Below, piece by piece: positions 3,527-57,507 of a stretch of DNA of 64,000 nt. Source of the stretch: an uncultured Mollicutes bacterium (GTDB lineage: Bacteria; Bacillota_I; Bacilli_A; RFN20; CAG-826). The stretch covers positions 6,043 through 70,042 of the forward strand of contig UQFY01000011.1 of NCBI GenBank assembly GCA_900540385.1. The letters run 5' to 3'. The notes beneath the pieces were generated by a model. That model was not told the origin of the DNA. It worked only from the letters and a program-made list of their open reading frames with translations, and did not search any database. Each line of letters begins with the position of its first letter. Within the stretch, counting starts at the first letter, position 1. Position numbers and translations under genes: made by a program.

Positions 3527-4126
3527 TTAAACCTTAAGCGTGTACTTCAACGTATACACGCCATTTCTAGACATACCAGCGTCTTCAATAAAAATCTTCA
3601 GCAAATAAGAGGTTGCATCCGTATTTAATTCGTAACGCATATCCAAAGACCAAACAGCTCCATCCTTTAAATATCCGTTTTCTAATTCTGCATCTCTCAC
3701 GTAATAGAATTTATAAAGAGAAGAAGGGTTTGTGTCGTGATAATCCTCTAAATCTGTCTTGGGAAGAATGTAATACCAAGTTGTATCTTCACTTAAAGCA
3801 TGAAGATGGGTGATTCCAAATTGTCCTTCATAATTTGTTTTAAAATAATCCAAGTATGTTTGGGCGTTTTGTTTCATGATTTCTTCACTTGGACAAGTTT
3901 GGTGGAAAGAATAGCCATTGTTGAACCAATGAAGGTCGCTACTCATATCGCCTGTTAAACCTGTTGGAGCGGCTAACCCCTCTAAGCCAACGGCTTTTAA
4001 TTCCTCGTTTGTAAACCAAGCAGAGGAATCGTGCGTTTCATTTGATCCAACAATTGTTTCTTCTCCGCAAGAAGCTAACATAAATAAAGAAGATAATAGT
4101 AATGGTAAGAGAACTTTCTTTTTCAT
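3527..4126 (-). CDS. Hypothetical lipoprotein
   Basis: MKKKVLLPLLLSSLFMLASCGEE gives a signal peptide with lipobox LASC. Start set at the internal Met at 4126. Confidence 0.7.
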   Translation of the reverse strand: MKKKVLLPLLLSSLFMLASCGEETIVGSNETHDSSAWFTNEELKAVGLEGLAAPTGLTGDMSSDLHWFNNGYSFHQTCPSEEIMKQNAQTYLDYFKTNYEGQFGITHLHALSEDTTWYYILPKTDLEDYHDTNPSSLYKFYYVRDAELENGYLKDGAVWSLDMRYELNTDATSYLLKIFIEDAGMSRNGVYTLKYTLKV

Positions 4127-50869: not shown

Positions 50870-51265
50870 ATGAACGAAGAACTTGAGCAATACATCGCTA
50901 AACACCAAAAGAACCGTGAAAAATCGGAATCTTTTGTAGACTATTTATACGAATTGATGGAAAAACATCAGATAGAAAATCCTTCTGATGTTTATAAGAA
51001 AGCCTTCCTTTCTCGCCAACTATACTCTTCGATCATTTCCGCTAAATCTAGCCCATCATTAAACACCTGTATCAAACTCGCTTTAGCCATGCATTTAGAC
51101 AATCATGAATGCAAATATCTTTTGAAAAAGGCTGGATATACTCTTTCTTCCTCTAGCAGATTTTCTTTAACCATCCGTTTTGCGATAGAAAACCATATTT
51201 ATGACATCTATGAGGTTAATAAACTTCTTATAGATGCAGGATACGAAGATTCTTTGCTCCTTTAA
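50870..51265 (+). CDS. Putative HTH-type regulator (short Clostridia-type family)
   Basis: DVYKKAFLSRQLYSSIISAKSSPSLNTCIKLALAMHLDNHECKYLLKKAGYTLS resembles the XRE-like single-domain proteins common in Firmicutes. Confidence 0.45.
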   Translation: MNEELEQYIAKHQKNREKSESFVDYLYELMEKHQIENPSDVYKKAFLSRQLYSSIISAKSSPSLNTCIKLALAMHLDNHECKYLLKKAGYTLSSSSRFSLTIRFAIENHIYDIYEVNKLLIDAGYEDSLLL

Positions 51266-51340: not shown

Positions 51341-51955
51341 ATGCAAGAAATCATCGAACATTATAGAGCCTTCAACCTTGCTAAAAAGATTATGGAAAAA
51401 GCTCATAAAAACCAAACAAGGGTGAGTGGAGAACCTTATGAATTACACCCTATTAGATGTTTTAATAACTACGCGGCTTTCATTGGATATCTGGATGAAC
51501 CCGAAACAAAATGCTATCGGTTAGAAGAAGATGGAATCCCTTTCTTTGGCGTAGTGGAAGTGGCTCTTCTTCATGATGTTATTGAAGATACGCCTTTTAC
51601 TATCGAAAAGATTGAAAAACTCTTCCAAGAGGAGGGATTATCTAGCTATTTCCATAAACGTATCAAGGATGCCTTAGAAAGAATCACCCATGATAAAACG
51701 ATGGATTACCCATCTTATATTGAAATATGCATGGGTAATCCTATCTCTGCTCTTTGTAAAATGTTGGATCTTCAAGATAACCTCACCGTTTTATCTTTGT
51801 CCAAACTTGATTCAAAAAATTATAAACGTGCCGAGAACTATCTAAAATATATCTATCAAATCAACAATGAATATCACTTCATTGAAAGAACCCATAAATA
51901 TCGCCAAGAACATTACCAAAAAAAGAGTAGAAACAAACGATCTTCTTCCATATAA
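51341..51955 (+). CDS. HD-domain protein, RelA/SpoT-type (p)ppGpp hydrolase-like (small alarmone hydrolase candidate)
   Basis: KAHKNQTRVSGEPYELHPIRC ... VALLHDVIEDT are the HD_4 signature residues. Confidence 0.7.
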   Translation: MQEIIEHYRAFNLAKKIMEKAHKNQTRVSGEPYELHPIRCFNNYAAFIGYLDEPETKCYRLEEDGIPFFGVVEVALLHDVIEDTPFTIEKIEKLFQEEGLSSYFHKRIKDALERITHDKTMDYPSYIEICMGNPISALCKMLDLQDNLTVLSLSKLDSKNYKRAENYLKYIYQINNEYHFIERTHKYRQEHYQKKSRNKRSSSI

Positions 51956-51956
51956 T

Positions 51957-52083
51957 TCTTCTGCCATAAAGAGAAGACGAGGGACAGGCCCTACGACTCT
52001 TCAGCAACCTGCATTCGTAAGGTGCTAAATCCTGAACGATGGGAAATAAACAATTATCTCTCATCGTGAAGATGGGAGTTTTT
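51957..52083 (+). promoter_or_regulatory. SAM-I (S-box) riboswitch with intrinsic terminator
   Basis: Conserved cores AGAGAAGACGAGGGACAGGCCC, CAGCAACC and GGTGCTAAATCC. P1 is CCAT/ATGG. Terminator CTCTCATC-GTGAA-GATGGGAG plus T5 (52058-52083). The 3' P1 strand GATGGGAA can alternatively pair with CTCTCATC as an antiterminator. Confidence 0.85.
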
Positions 52084-52111
52084 CTTTCTCTTGTGGCTAG
52101 GAGAAAGAAAA

Positions 52112-52771
52112 ATGAAAATCTTATTACATCTTCCTCACGTCTCATTAGACGTACCAAATTATTTTTATAAGGGGCTAATCATCCCTAAGCCTCTTTTCCG
52201 GAAATACAATCTAGAAATGAGTGATTTAGGGGTGGAATATCTTTTGAAAGATCTTCCAGGAGTAAAGATAATACCTCCTTATTCGCGCTTATTTTGTGAT
52301 GTAGAACGTTTTCGTGACGATAAGAAAGAAAGGATGGCTCAATATGGGGAGGGTCTTTTATATACAAAGATGTATGATGGCATTCTATTTCATAAGCACG
52401 ATGAAATCTATCGAAAGAAAGTCCTTACTTATTACGATACGTACCATCAAAAACTAGATGAAATTACCAAAGGCCTCCTTTCTTTTGACGATGAACTCTT
52501 AATACTAGATTGCCATTCTTTCTCTGATAAGATGGCCTCGTATTTCTTTAAACCTCCTTTTCCAGATATCTGTATCGGAATAGAAAAAGACTTCTTTGAT
52601 CAAGAAATATTGCATCGCATCATTGAAGCAATCAAAAAGAGGGGATACACCTATCAAATAAACTATCCCTATCAAGGAAGTCTTGTCCCAAACTGTATCT
52701 ATAATAAGAAAGTTATTTATAAAAAAGTCGTATCCATCATGTTAGAAATCAACAAACGTATCTATCTTTAA
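52112..52771 (+). CDS. N-formylglutamate amidohydrolase (FGase) family protein
   Basis: MKILLHLPHVSLDVP, SRLFCDVERFRDD and LDCHSF are typical of Firmicute FGase-family proteins. GGAGAAAG RBS. Confidence 0.7.
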   Translation: MKILLHLPHVSLDVPNYFYKGLIIPKPLFRKYNLEMSDLGVEYLLKDLPGVKIIPPYSRLFCDVERFRDDKKERMAQYGEGLLYTKMYDGILFHKHDEIYRKKVLTYYDTYHQKLDEITKGLLSFDDELLILDCHSFSDKMASYFFKPPFPDICIGIEKDFFDQEILHRIIEAIKKRGYTYQINYPYQGSLVPNCIYNKKVIYKKVVSIMLEINKRIYL

Positions 52772-52780
52772 TTCCTAATG

Positions 52781-52821
52781 AACTGTTACAAATTCAAAAT
52801 TATTTTAAGTTTGTAACAGGT
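52781..52821. repeat. Direct repeat DR-E copy 1 (41 bp, contains a 10-bp inverted repeat)
   Basis: AACTGTTACAAATTCAAAATTATTTTAAGTTTGTAACAGGT is identical to 54128-54168. Internal arms are CTGTTACAAA/TTTGTAACAG with a 17-nt spacer. Confidence 0.95.
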
Positions 52822-52905: not shown

Positions 52906-54129
52906 ATGTATATTCTAAGAAAACAATATCTAGAAGAAATTAGAAAATATTATGATTCCAACTTGATTAAGGTTTTAACAGGCATTAGACGTGTGGGCAA
53001 GAGCGTTCTTTTAGAACAAATACGTGAAGAATTGAAAAAAGATCGCAATTTGGATGAGGAACATATTATTTGCGTCAATTTCGAAGATATTTCTTTTTCT
53101 TCCATTAAAAATGCCTATCAACTAAATGACTATATTTCTGCTTGCATTAAAGATGAGAGGAAATACTATATTTTTCTCGATGAAATCCAACATGTAAAAG
53201 AATTTGAAAAAGTTCTTGCCTCCTTGAAGGCAACGAAAAACGTTTCTATTTTTGTTACTGGCAGCAATTCAAAGCTTCTTTCTGGAAGACTGGCTTCCCT
53301 TTTAGTCGGACGTTGCAAGGAATTCAAAATTCAGCCATTCACATACAAAGAATTCTTGGACTTTTATCAAGAAAATCAGCTTCCTCTCCCTACAAAGCCT
53401 CTCAATAATTACATCCGCTATGGGGGAATGCCACAAAGATTGGATTATTTTTTAGAAAAAGACATCGTTGCTTATTTGTCTGATCTTTTTAATGGCATCG
53501 TGGAGAAAGATATTTGTTCAAGTAAATCGAGAATCGACAAAGAAACATTCTTGAACATTGCCAAATATATCATCTCCAACTCTGCAAAGGATTTTTCTCC
53601 TGATAACATCGTTGATTATTACAACATGAACAATTCCGATAAAATACAACGCGTCACGCTTTATCGCTATTTAGAAAAGATGGAGCACGCTTGCCTTATT
53701 CAGCGAGTGAAACGTTATGATATCGCTTCAAAAAGAACTCTAAAATCGATAGAAAAGCGATTCGCCATGGACACAGGGCTTATTTTAGCGTGTAGTAATT
53801 CAAATCGAATTTTTCCTTCTAGAGCACTAGAAAACCTTGTTTATAACGAACTTATTTATAGAGGATATGAAGTAAAAATAGGAAAGACATATAAAGGTGA
53901 AATTGATTTCGTCACGATGAAAGAAAACAAAAAATGTTTCATTCAAGTCGCTTATCTTCTTTCTGATGAAGAAACCATCATCAGGGAATTCTCTCCTTAT
54001 AATTCTGTACGTGATCCCTCTCCGAAATACGTCATGAGTTTGGATGAGTTTGATATGTCACAAAACGGAATAACACATATCAATATCGAAGATTGGCTGC
54101 TTGGAAAAGTAGACTTGTTCCTTTCTTAA
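52906..54129 (+). CDS. AAA_14 ATPase with DUF4143 domain
   Basis: Walker A GIRRVGKSV, Walker B IFLDEIQHV. VTGSNSKLLSG, then C-terminal EIDFV...FIQV, a restriction-endonuclease-like core. Confidence 0.85.
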   Translation: MYILRKQYLEEIRKYYDSNLIKVLTGIRRVGKSVLLEQIREELKKDRNLDEEHIICVNFEDISFSSIKNAYQLNDYISACIKDERKYYIFLDEIQHVKEFEKVLASLKATKNVSIFVTGSNSKLLSGRLASLLVGRCKEFKIQPFTYKEFLDFYQENQLPLPTKPLNNYIRYGGMPQRLDYFLEKDIVAYLSDLFNGIVEKDICSSKSRIDKETFLNIAKYIISNSAKDFSPDNIVDYYNMNNSDKIQRVTLYRYLEKMEHACLIQRVKRYDIASKRTLKSIEKRFAMDTGLILACSNSNRIFPSRALENLVYNELIYRGYEVKIGKTYKGEIDFVTMKENKKCFIQVAYLLSDEETIIREFSPYNSVRDPSPKYVMSLDEFDMSQNGITHINIEDWLLGKVDLFLS

Positions 54130-54168
54130 CTGTTACAAATTCAAAATTATTTTAAGTTTGTAACAGGT
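54128..54168. repeat. Direct repeat DR-E copy 2
   Basis: Perfect 41-bp copy. Overlaps the TAA stop of the AAA_14 gene. Confidence 0.95.
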
Positions 54169-54199
54169 GACCATCATTTTGAAGAATTATAATAAGCAT

Positions 54200-54925
54200 A
54201 TGAATCAATTAAAAAAGATTAAAAGCTGGATACATAAAGATACCCGTATTGTCTTCTTGGGAGGAGCAGGGGTTTCTACTGCAAGCGGAATTCCAGACTT
54301 CCGTTCTCCGACAGGGTTATATAAAATCCAAAACAAATATGGTCTTCCTGCAGAAAGAATGCTCTCCCATTCTTATTTCTTTGAACATACGGACACTTTC
54401 TATGATTTCTATTGGAACTTCATGGTCTTTCCTAATGCAAAACCAAATAAAGCCCATATCGCTTTAGCAAACTACGAAAAAAGAGGGGGCCATATCGAAA
54501 TATTGACCCAAAATATTGATGGCCTTCATCAAGAAGCGGGTTCTAGACGCGTCTATGAACTCCATGGTTCCACCAAGCGTTATTTCTGCTTAGATTGTGG
54601 GAAAGAATACACTCTTGATCAAATTCCCCAAAAGAAAGAGATCCCGCATTGTTTGTGTGGAGGAATTCTGAAACCGGACGTGGTTCTTTATGAAGAGCCC
54701 TTAAACGAAACCATTCTTTATCAATCCGTGAACGCTTTACGTTATTCTGATTTATTAATCGTTGGAGGAACCTCTTTAAATGTCTATCCTGCCGCCGGAC
54801 TTATCTATGAATTCGGTGGAAAACATAAGGTTCTTATCAACAAAGAAAGAACCCCTCTAGATTCCTTCTTCGATGAAGTCATACATGAAGATATTGGAGA
54901 TGTTTTAGAATATCTTCTTTCTTGA
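54200..54925 (+). CDS. cobB: NAD-dependent protein deacylase, Sir2 family
   Basis: GAGVSTASGIPDFRS, QNIDGLH, Zn-binding CLDCG...CLCGG, GTSLNVYPAA. The start is uncertain (ATG 54200, or GTG 54167 inside DR-E). Confidence 0.85.
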   Translation: MNQLKKIKSWIHKDTRIVFLGGAGVSTASGIPDFRSPTGLYKIQNKYGLPAERMLSHSYFFEHTDTFYDFYWNFMVFPNAKPNKAHIALANYEKRGGHIEILTQNIDGLHQEAGSRRVYELHGSTKRYFCLDCGKEYTLDQIPQKKEIPHCLCGGILKPDVVLYEEPLNETILYQSVNALRYSDLLIVGGTSLNVYPAAGLIYEFGGKHKVLINKERTPLDSFFDEVIHEDIGDVLEYLLS

Positions 54926-54999: not shown

Positions 55000-57507
55000 T
55001 TAAGCTGCCTTATGGCAAACAAAGGTGAACTTAGGCGTAGATTGATATGTGTTTGTACCGAAATAGATATCGCAATAAGTTCCTTTATAACATTCCTTAT
55101 TGGAGGAATCTAATCCCTTGGTATAACCACATTTTAAGAGATAGGCCGCATATTTGTTGGCGTAGATTTGACGATCAGAGCTTGTTCCGCAACTCTTATC
55201 CAAACTAATCTCTAAAGTCACGCCATCAATTGGACCATAACTAAATGGATAAGAAGAATCGGTGTAATCAAGAGCAAGATATGGTACGGAATCGGCTGCA
55301 GTTTTTGCATCCGCATCAGACATTCCGAGTTTTTCTTTGAAAACCTTTAACAATTGATAGTTATAGAAACTTGCATAACCCGTTTCCCATGTTAACCAAG
55401 AAGAATTCGCTTTTAATGGAGAGAAATCGATGAAATCCTTATCGGAGAAATAGAATTTATCATTCTCCACGCTGATAGATTGATAGTTAAAGGAGAGTTT
55501 ACGGTATCCGCCATTATTCGGAGACCAATATTCATAGGTAGAAACCTTACCATCTTCCCCTAAGGTGATGTAGGTATCGTAATCTTTTGCATCATCGTCA
55601 TCTTTAGGGAACATCGTTAAGCCAACGCCATCGACAAAAGGTTTCACCGCATATTTGTTCTCAGAGACTTTGGTGAATAATTCAGGATGAGTGCTAAAAG
55701 ACATGAAATCAGAGAGAGTTTTGCCCTTTTGAACATCACCAGAACGAACCGCTCTACCTTCAAAATGATCCGAAGGATCTTCCGTTTCGGCATTTTTATA
55801 AATTAGTTTATAGCTGATGCTAAATGGCTGGACGCCATCTTCCGTCTTTAAATATCCGTAGCTTTCTTTTCCAGAGAATTCTGGGACATAGAAAGAATAA
55901 TCCCCGGTATGGTAATAATCACCGATATCACGATTGGTGATGGTGTTATTATTGGAATTATTGATTTCATGCGCTTGCCAAACGTTATTATCGTTTTGGA
56001 AATAAGAGAAAGCAGTGCTTAATTTTTGATAATCCTCTTCTTCGGAGTTAACGGCATACTTTTCTAAAGAAATAGCGGTAGGTGTTTCGAGATTGGTTAC
56101 GAATTCGTAATGATGCCCATCGGTATAGGTATAGCCTAATCCGTGGAAAGATAAGGCGTTATTCTCATATGTAAGATCTAAGGAACGAATATTTCCGAAG
56201 GTAACATAGTTATAGTCGCAAAGGGATTCAATTATGCCATCGGCTCCTGGACCAAAATAATGGTAGGAACCATCATCTGTTTTTCTACAGGCTAAAGGAT
56301 CGAAATACTCCTTTAAGAAACGATAGGATAAATCTTCCCAAAGGTAAGAAGTACGTTTGCTAGCAATTTCATTATTCCCGTTAATATAGACTTCTTCGGC
56401 ATAACCTGAAGCACTCTTACGGAGATATTGGCAATCATCGATAGCCCCACGGACATTATCATAACGGTTATGAATCTTTTTCTCGTTTTCGTTTGCTTCC
56501 AAAGAAACACTTGCTTTCCAAGAGGAAACGCCTTCGCTAGAAATCTTATTCATTTCCGTTTTGGCTTTAATCTTATTATCAAGCGCCAACTTCGAAGCCT
56601 CTTCAGGCAAAGACTCCGTTGGTAAAGAGAAAGAAGAGATAAAATCTTCTAATTCTTGGTTCACTGTTTCGCCAACTTTCGTGAGGAATCCTTTTGCAAG
56701 AGGGACAATTCTCGTATTCTCATCATCGTTTGCATCTTCCCAAGTATAAAGTTGGATAATAACGGACTTATCTTCTCTCACGCCAAAACGAACTTCGGCA
56801 ATTCTTCCGGTTATGGAAGCATTTTTATACCCAAGCAAGGTCCCGCAAGCAACGATGAAGGCTTGCTTATCGGAATAAATGCCATGTTCCGCGTCATAAG
56901 AAACGAACTCTTCGGTTACACGGTTTTCTGGATTTGCTAAAGAACCAAGAAGGTTCATGCGGTATAAGAAATCGTCTTCATTTGCAGGCGTTCTATAAGA
57001 AGCCCCATCAAGACGGTGGGCATTTGTAATCTTAATCGAGGAGCCTTCCTTATCGTATTCGTAATAAATGTCATTAGGGAATTCCGTTTGGTTATAGCTC
57101 TTTAAAAGAAGGTAACCCGTATTGGCATAATTTCTTGTGATGTATTTACGAGTGACTGTATCTTTTAAAGTAGAAGTCACATTTCCTTCCGTATCATACA
57201 TCTCGTATTCAACGGTATAGTTTCCGGAATTGGCAGCAGCCATAAGCGTGCTATAGATGTAAGCTTTATCACCAGAATTTGTATCGATTGGAGGAACGTA
57301 TTGAGAAGATTCGGAGCTTCCTTTTTGAGAATTGCTGCTAGAACTTTCGCTAGAAGAATCTTTTCTAGAATCGTTACTAGAAGAAGGGGCAATGGAAGAA
57401 ACGTTTTCTTCCGAAGGAATTGTATCATTACTGCTTTCATTCGTGCTTACGCAAGAAAGTAACATTCCTACGCTTAAGCACAACGGCATAAAATATCTTT
57501 TTTTCAT
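55000..57507 (-). CDS. Large hypothetical surface lipoprotein
   Basis: Lipobox GMLLSCVST followed by a long Ser-rich linker. 835 aa with no recognisable catalytic motif. Confidence 0.7.
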   Translation of the reverse strand: MKKRYFMPLCLSVGMLLSCVSTNESSNDTIPSEENVSSIAPSSSNDSRKDSSSESSSSNSQKGSSESSQYVPPIDTNSGDKAYIYSTLMAAANSGNYTVEYEMYDTEGNVTSTLKDTVTRKYITRNYANTGYLLLKSYNQTEFPNDIYYEYDKEGSSIKITNAHRLDGASYRTPANEDDFLYRMNLLGSLANPENRVTEEFVSYDAEHGIYSDKQAFIVACGTLLGYKNASITGRIAEVRFGVREDKSVIIQLYTWEDANDDENTRIVPLAKGFLTKVGETVNQELEDFISSFSLPTESLPEEASKLALDNKIKAKTEMNKISSEGVSSWKASVSLEANENEKKIHNRYDNVRGAIDDCQYLRKSASGYAEEVYINGNNEIASKRTSYLWEDLSYRFLKEYFDPLACRKTDDGSYHYFGPGADGIIESLCDYNYVTFGNIRSLDLTYENNALSFHGLGYTYTDGHHYEFVTNLETPTAISLEKYAVNSEEEDYQKLSTAFSYFQNDNNVWQAHEINNSNNNTITNRDIGDYYHTGDYSFYVPEFSGKESYGYLKTEDGVQPFSISYKLIYKNAETEDPSDHFEGRAVRSGDVQKGKTLSDFMSFSTHPELFTKVSENKYAVKPFVDGVGLTMFPKDDDDAKDYDTYITLGEDGKVSTYEYWSPNNGGYRKLSFNYQSISVENDKFYFSDKDFIDFSPLKANSSWLTWETGYASFYNYQLLKVFKEKLGMSDADAKTAADSVPYLALDYTDSSYPFSYGPIDGVTLEISLDKSCGTSSDRQIYANKYAAYLLKCGYTKGLDSSNKECYKGTYCDIYFGTNTYQSTPKFTFVCHKAA

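Follow-up and report, generated by a model that had tools for sequence, protein, structure and literature searches.

A self-contained promoter-riboswitch-gene cassette linking a SAM-I leader to a divergent FGase-fold amidohydrolase in an uncultured Mollicutes bacterium

Main finding

We studied a 64,000-nt stretch of contig UQFY01000011.1 (assembly GCA_900540385.1, positions 6,043 to 70,042 of the forward strand) from an uncultured Mollicutes bacterium, in the following called the window. Within it, a SAM-I riboswitch (S-box) for S-adenosylmethionine (SAM) precedes a gene of the N-formylglutamate amidohydrolase (FGase) family. The locus is a self-contained promoter-riboswitch-gene cassette, and we consider it highly probable that the leader controls the FGase-like gene as an OFF switch. 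An earlier note on this DNA had singled out the pairing, as an FGase-family gene is unexpected in S-box regulons. In agreement with this, no paper joining an S-box or SAM riboswitch with the FGase family was found in the literature searched.

Architecture of the leader

The aptamer search was based on the Rfam covariance models, where SAM-I (RF00162) has a gathering score of 44.4. The Rfam scan reports a single SAM-I aptamer in the window and scores it with 62.8 bits (Table 1), such that the S-box called earlier from the letters alone is recovered by the curated model. Its distance to the open reading frame (ORF), formerly given as 28 nt, has to be corrected to 33 nt when measured from the Rfam end to the ATG.

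The switching part was investigated in an alignment (A2) of 27 related leaders, ranging from the aptamer 5' end to the start codon. Three segments recur therein, namely A (52036-52044, ACGAUGGGA), B (52058-52067, CUCUCAUCGU) and C (52071-52078, GAUGGGAG). Segment B can pair either with A, which forms an antiterminator, or with C, which forms an intrinsic terminator. For A:B, 89.8% of the alignment cells are paired and compensatory changes are observed at 8/9 pairs; the respective values for B:C are 97.7% and 7/8. Both scores are reached by 0/500 shuffles, slid controls for the two helices drop to about 40-50% paired cells, and the U-run (52079-52092) is nearly invariant. That is, both helices of the terminator/antiterminator switch proposed in the earlier note are backed by covariation.

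Covariation also bears on the question of where the aptamer ends. P1 closed by strand A obtains a covariation score of 0.206 (reached by 0/500 shuffles). Using strand C as the P1 3' strand, as done in the Rfam alignment of the window, is unsupported by covariation (score 0.105, reached by 484/500 shuffles). In most of the related leaders, Rfam stops the aptamer at A; for the window, it assigns A:B to P4 and places C in the 3' strand of P1. Checked against the four-way junction, P1, P2 and P3 align, and the stretch aligned as P4 (A:B) covaries yet competes with the terminator. Since covariation favours A and not C as the P1 3' strand, the consistent reading is that of a P4-less SAM-I aptamer, properly ending at about 52044, which would form part of a classical OFF switch. 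SAM binding by the leader is to be expected from its family membership.

Bacillus subtilis yitJ and metI are well-known examples of S-box leaders. With this family (RF00162), the window leader shares an aptamer core above the curated threshold, the OFF logic, mutually exclusive antiterminator and terminator helices and the U-run; in addition, the same family controls metK in the same genomes. The window leader differs by lacking P4 under the covariation reading (the P4 stretch of Rfam being the antiterminator), by J1/2 being AAAGAG and a short P1 (CCAU/AUGG), by a post-terminator element D with predicted sequestration of the Shine-Dalgarno sequence (SD), and by a cargo that is not a methionine, cysteine or SAM gene. 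Furthermore, leaders of the window type travel jointly with their promoter, and the resulting cassette stands before many unrelated genes. The SAM-I/IV family (RF01725) belongs to the same clan and yields the best score for the related leaders at loci L006, L022 and viral L180, whereas the window leader scores best as SAM-I.

A sigma-70-type promoter lies directly before P1 and overlaps the 3' end of the upstream gene for an HD protein. Its register is conserved. For most related leaders, a gap of exactly 7 nt lies between the end of the -10 box and the P1 5' strand; a good -35 box at 17-nt spacing is often present, and at least 9/12 promoter consensus positions are matched in 20/26 leaders. 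Behind the switch, the ATG follows the U-run after only about 20 nt. As judged from the sequence, this gap is too short to hold a separate promoter for the FGase-like gene, which would be transcribed only through the leader. The earlier note had considered a promoter acting independently of the leader; we find no room for it after the terminator, and the conserved promoter is located directly before P1.

Finally, the leader contains element D, whose sequence complements the aptamer 5' end (P1 5' strand plus J1/2) and, as an alternative partner, the SD region. For the window, the duplex of D with the aptamer 5' end is predicted at -21 kcal/mol (z -5.9), and it is outdone by no or hardly any shuffles in 21/27 leaders (p<=0.01). 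Compensatory changes are found as well. Examples are the pairs CCAUAUAGAG/CUUUAUAUGG and GAGCAC/GUGCUC, and ACAUUAUCAAG/CUUGAUAAUGU from a second leader type. D was discovered on the genome set of leaders, with metagenome leaders serving as replication set; here, 11/11 independent leaders were positive when retested (p<=0.023). The median probability of the SD being unpaired, taken over the leaders, is 0.01 with the 5' segment blocked vs. 0.40 with the whole leader free (Wilcoxon p about 1e-5). In the minimum-free-energy fold of the window, the SD is buried in a 16-bp hairpin with D. Because SD accessibility falls when the 5' segment is unavailable, a second, translational OFF layer acting on the read-through RNA is suggested, which we regard as moderately probable.

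Table 1. Coordinates of the cassette elements and of the neighbouring genes within the window
Feature	Position	Strand	Remarks
Sigma-70-type promoter (-35 TAGAAA, 17-nt spacer, -10 TATAAT)	51928..51956	+	10/12 consensus matches
SAM-I (S-box) aptamer, Rfam limits	51961..52078	+	RF00162, 62.8 bits, E 3.2e-12, full model 1-108
Antiterminator helix A:B (ACGAUGGGA ... UCUCAUCGU)	52036..52067	+	covariation; read as P4 by Rfam
Intrinsic terminator B:C (CUCUCAUC-GUGAA-GAUGGGAG) plus U-rich tail 52079-52092	52058..52092	+	terminator-like site, covariation
Element D (UUUCUCUUGUGGC)	52085..52097	+	complementary to aptamer 5' end (GCCAUAAAGAGAAG, 51963-51976), alternatively to SD region
Shine-Dalgarno sequence AGGAG	52099..52103	+	8 nt before ATG; read directly from the sequence
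FGase-fold gene, 219 aa	52112..52771	+	PF05013 match; ATG 52112, stop 52769-52771
131-aa protein	50870..51265		weak HTH match
HD protein, RelA/SpoT-hydrolase type, 204 aa	51341..51955	+	ends 5 nt before aptamer; contains cassette promoter
AAA_14/DUF4143 ATPase	52906..54129	+	PADLOC candidate family PDC-S01, 421.6 bits; downstream of FGase-like gene
CobB-type SIR2 deacylase	54167..54925	+	NF001752, 303 bits; downstream of FGase-like gene

Conservation of the linkage

We collected 80 loci with FGase-like relatives from one-genome-per-species collections and searched their 79 genomes with RF00162. An S-box is found upstream on the same strand at 27/80 loci. Only 33/79 genomes contain any S-box, and in 26 of these 33 it precedes the FGase-like gene; for 13 genomes, the FGase-linked S-box is the only one found. 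Unlinked loci mostly stem from Saccharibacteria and other lineages without any S-box, and at 20 unlinked genome loci no other Rfam riboswitch or T-box (including the methionine T-box) was detected. Similar results are observed for metagenome contigs, where a SAM-I aptamer lies upstream at 14/20 closest loci and at 2/20 of the next ones (16/40); riboswitch classes other than SAM-I were not found in these 40 loci. Over the whole analysis, SAM-I and SAM-I/IV were the sole SAM riboswitch classes encountered. The recurrence of the linkage rules out what the earlier note had raised as an objection, namely that orthologues are never S-box-linked and the leader is left over from a deleted met gene.

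All three other species of the host's family that carry the gene (3/3, see below) likewise have an upstream S-box. In the same genomes as the 80 loci, other S-boxes control metK at 17 loci, so that the sensor behaves like a usual SAM sensor. Apart from metK, no S-box cargo comes close in frequency to the FGase-like gene, whose linkage extends across many lineages.

Two further structured RNAs were encountered downstream of distant FGase-like genes on metagenome contigs and are probably unrelated, i.e., a ROOL RNA (296 bits, L210 1436-1986, gene ending at 750) and a T-box leader (121 bits, L204 2366-2542, gene ending at 2145).

The enzyme and its host

The ORF behind the switch had been assigned to the FGase family, and its 219-aa product indeed matches PF05013 with 108.5 bits over the whole profile (positions 2-219). 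As start codon, we prefer ATG 52112, which has AGGAG upstream; TTG 52091 from the mechanical ORF list is in frame and upstream of it. The HutG equivalog TIGR02017, in turn, is matched with 40.2 bits vs. a cut-off of 278.75. An AlphaFold model built with 18 relatives (pLDDT 93.7) shows two structural-genomics FGase-fold entries as sole clear structural relatives, namely 2q7s (TM 0.78) and 2odf (TM 0.71), at 16-19% identity. Peptidoglycan amidases and poly-gamma-glutamate hydrolases appear as weak fold neighbours. Among relatives, H6, H9, D63, E65, H135, S136 and E212 are invariant, and the conserved His, Glu and Asp positions are consistent with a predicted metal site. The subfamily comprises 569 sequence clusters at E<=1e-30.

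HutG has the same fold, Pfam family and conserved His/Glu/Asp in common with the window enzyme. The latter is far below the equivalog threshold, distant from the solved relatives, shorter (219 aa vs. about 260-290), and encoded in a genome without the hut pathway. That is, neither urocanase (PF01175, HutU) nor histidine ammonia-lyase (PF00221, HutH) has a match in the 94.6%-complete host genome, which argues against a HutG role. The product is predicted to be a small FGase-fold metal-amidohydrolase of a divergent, mobile subfamily, and not HutG.

PF05013 holds more than one amide specificity, including the gamma-glutamyl-glycine amidohydrolase of ethanolamine utilisation (PMC9397018 Table 2). 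The latter is likewise a PF05013 member with an amide specificity beyond N-formylglutamate, but none of its ethanolamine-pathway partner genes is found near the window gene. There is no PHROG match for the enzyme. A PADLOC-DB 2.0 match to KwaB (21.7 bits) was treated as noise, leaving no credible defence family.

The host genome (1.71 Mb) carries two S-boxes in total. MetK is present, and control of the host's own metK by a riboswitch was rejected, given no Rfam element before that gene. The same genome lacks MetE as well as any MetH/YitJ-type domain or MetQ-type binding protein. Because these are missing, the host is probably a methionine auxotroph, in which the SAM level would report methionine supply. 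Such an auxotrophy fits an enzyme that frees methionine from a conjugate.

Viral relatives

Relatives at 28-37% identity are encoded by 20 IMG/VR viral contigs (L163-L182), several of which are 150-360 kb long. In 18 of them, the FGase-like gene is adjoined by a conserved partner. For the model of this partner (pLDDT 83), the top structural matches are all GNAT acetyltransferases; their Foldseek probabilities lie at about 0.7-1.0 (>=0.9 in most rows), with modest TM-scores. A few bacterial loci likewise have the GNAT-like partner in front of an FGase-like gene. Since the FGase-like gene pairs with an acyltransferase in phages and some bacteria, an N-acylated substrate is suggested. A cultured Vibrio phage, vB_VmeM-32, encodes a 30%-identical homologue; its neighbour was considered as the GNAT-like partner and rejected as a different protein.

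A SAM-lyase-like protein occurs in three viral contigs, each with an arrangement of its own. On L181, an S-adenosylmethionine-lyase domain (PF23780, 44.8 bits vs. cut-off 28) precedes the partner within one fusion protein, and the FGase-like gene begins 5 nt past the stop of this fusion. A homologue of the L181 lyase region is located between the FGase-like gene and the partner in L169 (E 3e-22), and 1.3 kb downstream in L168 (E 4e-37). Phage SAM lyases split SAM into methylthioadenosine and homoserine lactone as a counter-defence (PMC7877911; PMC12255297). The likeness to this system (T3 SAMase / Svi3-3 family, PF23780; PMC7877911) consists in the lyase-like proteins fused or adjacent to the GNAT-like partner. 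It differs in that window, host genome and S-box-linked loci are without SAM lyase, and the link to the amidohydrolase is suggested by adjacency only. The GNAT-like partner, too, was found neither in the host genome nor at any S-box-linked locus. Finally, contig L180 carries a SAM-I/IV riboswitch (3904-4008) directly before the FGase-like gene. The connection of the enzyme to SAM physiology is now based on two independent associations, i.e., the bacterial riboswitch and the SAM-lyase neighbours in phages.

Genomic contexts and further cargo of the leader

The FGase-like gene belongs to the accessory genes: it is rare, moves horizontally and resides in mobile or defence-type islands. Its closest homologues (57-68% identity) belong to other lineages, and plasmid homologues are only distant (about 25% identical, Rhodococcus). 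In Firmicutes-type loci, almost all neighbours are unique, without conserved gene neighbours. Synteny is observed only in Saccharibacteria (aspS-FGase, DsbA-like, CBS, VIT1, MscS) and is uninformative. Recurrent among 90 flanking proteins are AAA_14/DUF4143, XRE-type HTH, SIR2, Macro, ADP-ribosylglycohydrolase and restriction-modification genes. One context combines a MobA/MobL relaxase with a HATPase_c_3-Z1-DUF4420-AIPR cluster, another one a phage-type integrase with NUDIX, PHP and three radical-SAM genes. Further contexts feature KAP NTPase/DUF2971/Fic, serine recombinases, an integrase with SIR2, as well as PDDEXK_4 nuclease-like and Ogt neighbours. Such surroundings argue for something less simple than a housekeeping salvage step.

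Separately, we observed a protein of 805 aa (P0229, L183 640-3057) in which an FGase-like domain is fused to a CorA-type membrane domain. In some type III CRISPR systems, proteins of the CorA family serve as the effectors activated by SAM-AMP (PMC12255297).

Two S-box leader lineages can be distinguished, i.e., a classical CUUAUCAAGA type at metK and a CCAUAAAGAG P4-less type as in the window. We surveyed the S-box cargo in relatives at loci L084-L158. Besides the FGase-like gene, CCAUAAAGAG leaders precede an EamA transporter, a QueT-type transporter, priA-fmt, a soluble AAA-M41 protease, an AAA_5 ATPase, a pentapeptide-repeat protein, Sel1 proteins, an HD_4-Sel1 protein, DUF5677 and many ORFs without Pfam hit; a Fic gene is placed further downstream behind such a leader. 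The second S-box of the host (G000:C7:64580-64678, i.e., L002 1501-1599 and L111; 47.9 bits) precedes a 333-aa NERD-domain protein. Its leader has a related A/B/C/D design with the same U-run/anti-SD and SD sequences and a different 5' end (ACAUAUCAAGAG). Homology of the NERD protein to the PDDEXK_4-like neighbour of a distant FGase relative was checked by BLASTP and rejected.

Some cargo observations are reported for completeness. A PDC-S01-type AAA_14/DUF4143 ATPase is encoded just upstream of the NERD S-box, and the same pair is present in a 95%-identical relative (L084). In L095 and L099, the S-box stands directly before the priA-fmt operon (primosomal helicase and Met-tRNA formyltransferase), and both genomes also carry S-box/FGase-like cassettes. 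ORFs of about 85-89 aa come first after the S-box in three loci (L030 2993-3247, L073 3703-3969, L125), with N-termini alike by eye; the cargo beyond them is FGase-like in two cases and Fic in one.

Neighbouring genes in the window

The FGase-family ORF had been described as standing alone behind the switch, and it is the sole evident gene of the unit. The next gene begins 135 nt after it, beyond a 10-bp hairpin at 52783-52819. This hairpin just past the stop is a perfect inverted repeat on the forward strand (CTGTTACAAA ... TTTGTAACAG) with a 17-nt loop and without U-tail. On the upstream side, the HD RelA/SpoT-type hydrolase-like protein and the HTH protein named in the earlier note are both present, the latter by a weak match (Table 1). 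Its view that the HD neighbour is unrelated may not wholly hold: the upstream HD gene may have some relation to the S-box cassette, since another genome (L106) has an HD_4-Sel1 protein among its S-box cargo. An 835-aa ORF at window positions 55000-57507 on the reverse strand has no Pfam or PADLOC match.

Proposed mechanism and alternatives

We propose the following mechanism. Transcription would start at about the P1 5' strand. With SAM bound, the P4-less aptamer would keep A within P1, B would pair with C, and the resulting terminator would stop transcription in the U-run. At low SAM, the A:B antiterminator would form and RNA polymerase would read through. In the read-through RNA, D would pair with the free aptamer 5' end, so that the SD stays accessible; with the 5' end tied up in a SAM-bound aptamer, D would bury the SD instead and thereby add the translational OFF layer. 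The enzyme would accordingly be made only when SAM is scarce. It may remove an N-acyl group (formyl- or acetyl-type) from an amino compound of methionine/SAM supply, e.g., N-formyl- or N-acetyl-methionine, such that deacylation would restore methionine, and then SAM, in the probable auxotroph. For this explanation as a whole (cassette, dual OFF control and N-acyl methionine/SAM-related deacylation), our confidence is tentative and stays somewhat on the doubtful side. A substrate of the N-acyl-methionine type specifically is a clearly more doubtful proposal.

Several observations weigh against the explanation as a whole. Among 120 other species of the same family, only 3 have a homologue (~44% identity), and among the congeners 0/4. 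No methionine or sulfur gene adjoins the FGase-like gene among the 90 flanking proteins, and surroundings composed of restriction-modification, PDC-S01, XRE, SIR2, integrase, relaxase and AIPR/Z1 genes are odd for a nutrient-salvage enzyme. The CCAUAAAGAG P4-less leader serves very heterogeneous cargo besides the FGase-like gene, and about half of the more distant homologues are without riboswitch. Concerning the translational layer, the D:SD hairpin of the window is predicted to win at equilibrium in both states (P(unpaired) 0.01 each). Its ON state would need D to meet the free 5' end before the SD is transcribed, which is a kinetic argument that we infer.

We rank methionine/SAM-related deacylation first, a role in genetic conflict second and a general starvation cassette third. 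In the second explanation, which we deem unlikely though it deserves attention, the leader is a portable low-SAM sensor. A fall in SAM, e.g., caused by a phage SAM lyase, would derepress accessory genes including the hydrolase and the NERD gene. The substrate would be a compound of the SAM-lyase/GNAT pathway, e.g., an N-acylated homoserine (lactone) or methionine derivative, and not of nutritional relevance. This would account for the GNAT-fold partner and the SAM-lyase-like proteins in viral contigs, for the riboswitch before the viral gene in L180, and for NERD, Fic, AAA_5, HD_4 and DUF5677 being driven by the same leader; SAM lyases being counter-defence enzymes of phages (PMC7877911), bacterial copies residing in mobile or defence-type islands and the existence of an FGase-CorA fusion point in the same direction. 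However, the GNAT partner and SAM lyase are missing from the host genome and all S-box-linked loci, and the enzyme has neither a credible PADLOC family nor a PHROG hit. The island neighbourhood is circumstantial and without baseline, and the phage relatives are so distant (28-37% identity) that their function may differ. Furthermore, no paper linking SAM riboswitches to phage defence was found in the literature searched.

The third explanation, to which we assign a slightly lower probability still, considers SAM a proxy for amino-acid supply. That is, the leader would have been copied before assorted accessory genes to form a general low-methionine stress cassette, and the enzyme would act on an amide unrelated to methionine or SAM, e.g., a peptide, a peptidoglycan-type or gamma-glutamyl amide, an acetyl-polyamine or a vitamin conjugate. 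The heterogeneous cargo behind one leader type, including the QueT and EamA transporters, is in line with this, as are the peptidoglycan amidases and poly-gamma-glutamate hydrolases among the weak fold neighbours and the gamma-glutamyl-glycine amidohydrolase within PF05013. Nevertheless, the FGase-like gene dominates the non-metK cargo and is S-box-linked in many lineages, and the SAM-lyase neighbours in phages, as an independent line, indicate a specific tie to SAM.

An ordinary HutG of histidine utilisation, or a formate supplier for one-carbon metabolism, might be read from the PF05013 domain and from sources naming relatives N-formylglutamate amidohydrolase, but is very improbable and essentially excluded by the equivalog score and the missing hut pathway, next to the low identity to solved FGase-fold proteins and the lack of MetE/MetH to use one-carbon units for methionine. 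Least probable of all is a leader that is a relic or chance neighbour without regulatory role, for which the riboswitch-free half of the distant homologues could be quoted, and which is excluded by the recurrent linkage (27 genome and 16 metagenome loci) and the conserved promoter register, along with the covarying helices and the lack of room for another promoter.

Implications

The new elements of this analysis are the quantified linkage, the P4-less antiterminator/terminator architecture read from covariation, element D and the promoter in fixed register, as well as the two leader lineages with heterogeneous cargo, the probable host auxotrophy and the phage GNAT-like/SAM-lyase association. 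From the perspective of RNA biology, the leader is of interest as a pared-down, apparently P4-less SAM-I aptamer that appears to join transcription termination and SD sequestration via one extra element, and as a portable cassette with its own promoter.

A more speculative idea, which we consider rather improbable, is that the P4-less S-box cassette is a mobile SAM-collapse sensor. It would arm accessory genes when phage or plasmid SAM lyases, or another attack on the methyl donor, take effect, with the hydrolase acting on an N-acylated SAM-degradation product. If true, both sides of the conflict would encode the same enzyme, the cassette would be the first riboswitch acting as an infection sensor, and a new SAM-lyase metabolite would be implied.

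Returning to the deacylation that we rank first, the enzyme would mark a so far undescribed step connected with SAM shortage. S-box regulons are regarded as a trustworthy indicator of methionine/SAM metabolism, and here, in a large group of small-genome gut bacteria, their commonest cargo besides metK is an uncharacterised enzyme subfamily. The enzyme may carry an orphan activity, such as the deacylation of N-formyl- or N-acetyl-methionine, or point to a new metabolite arising when phages degrade SAM.

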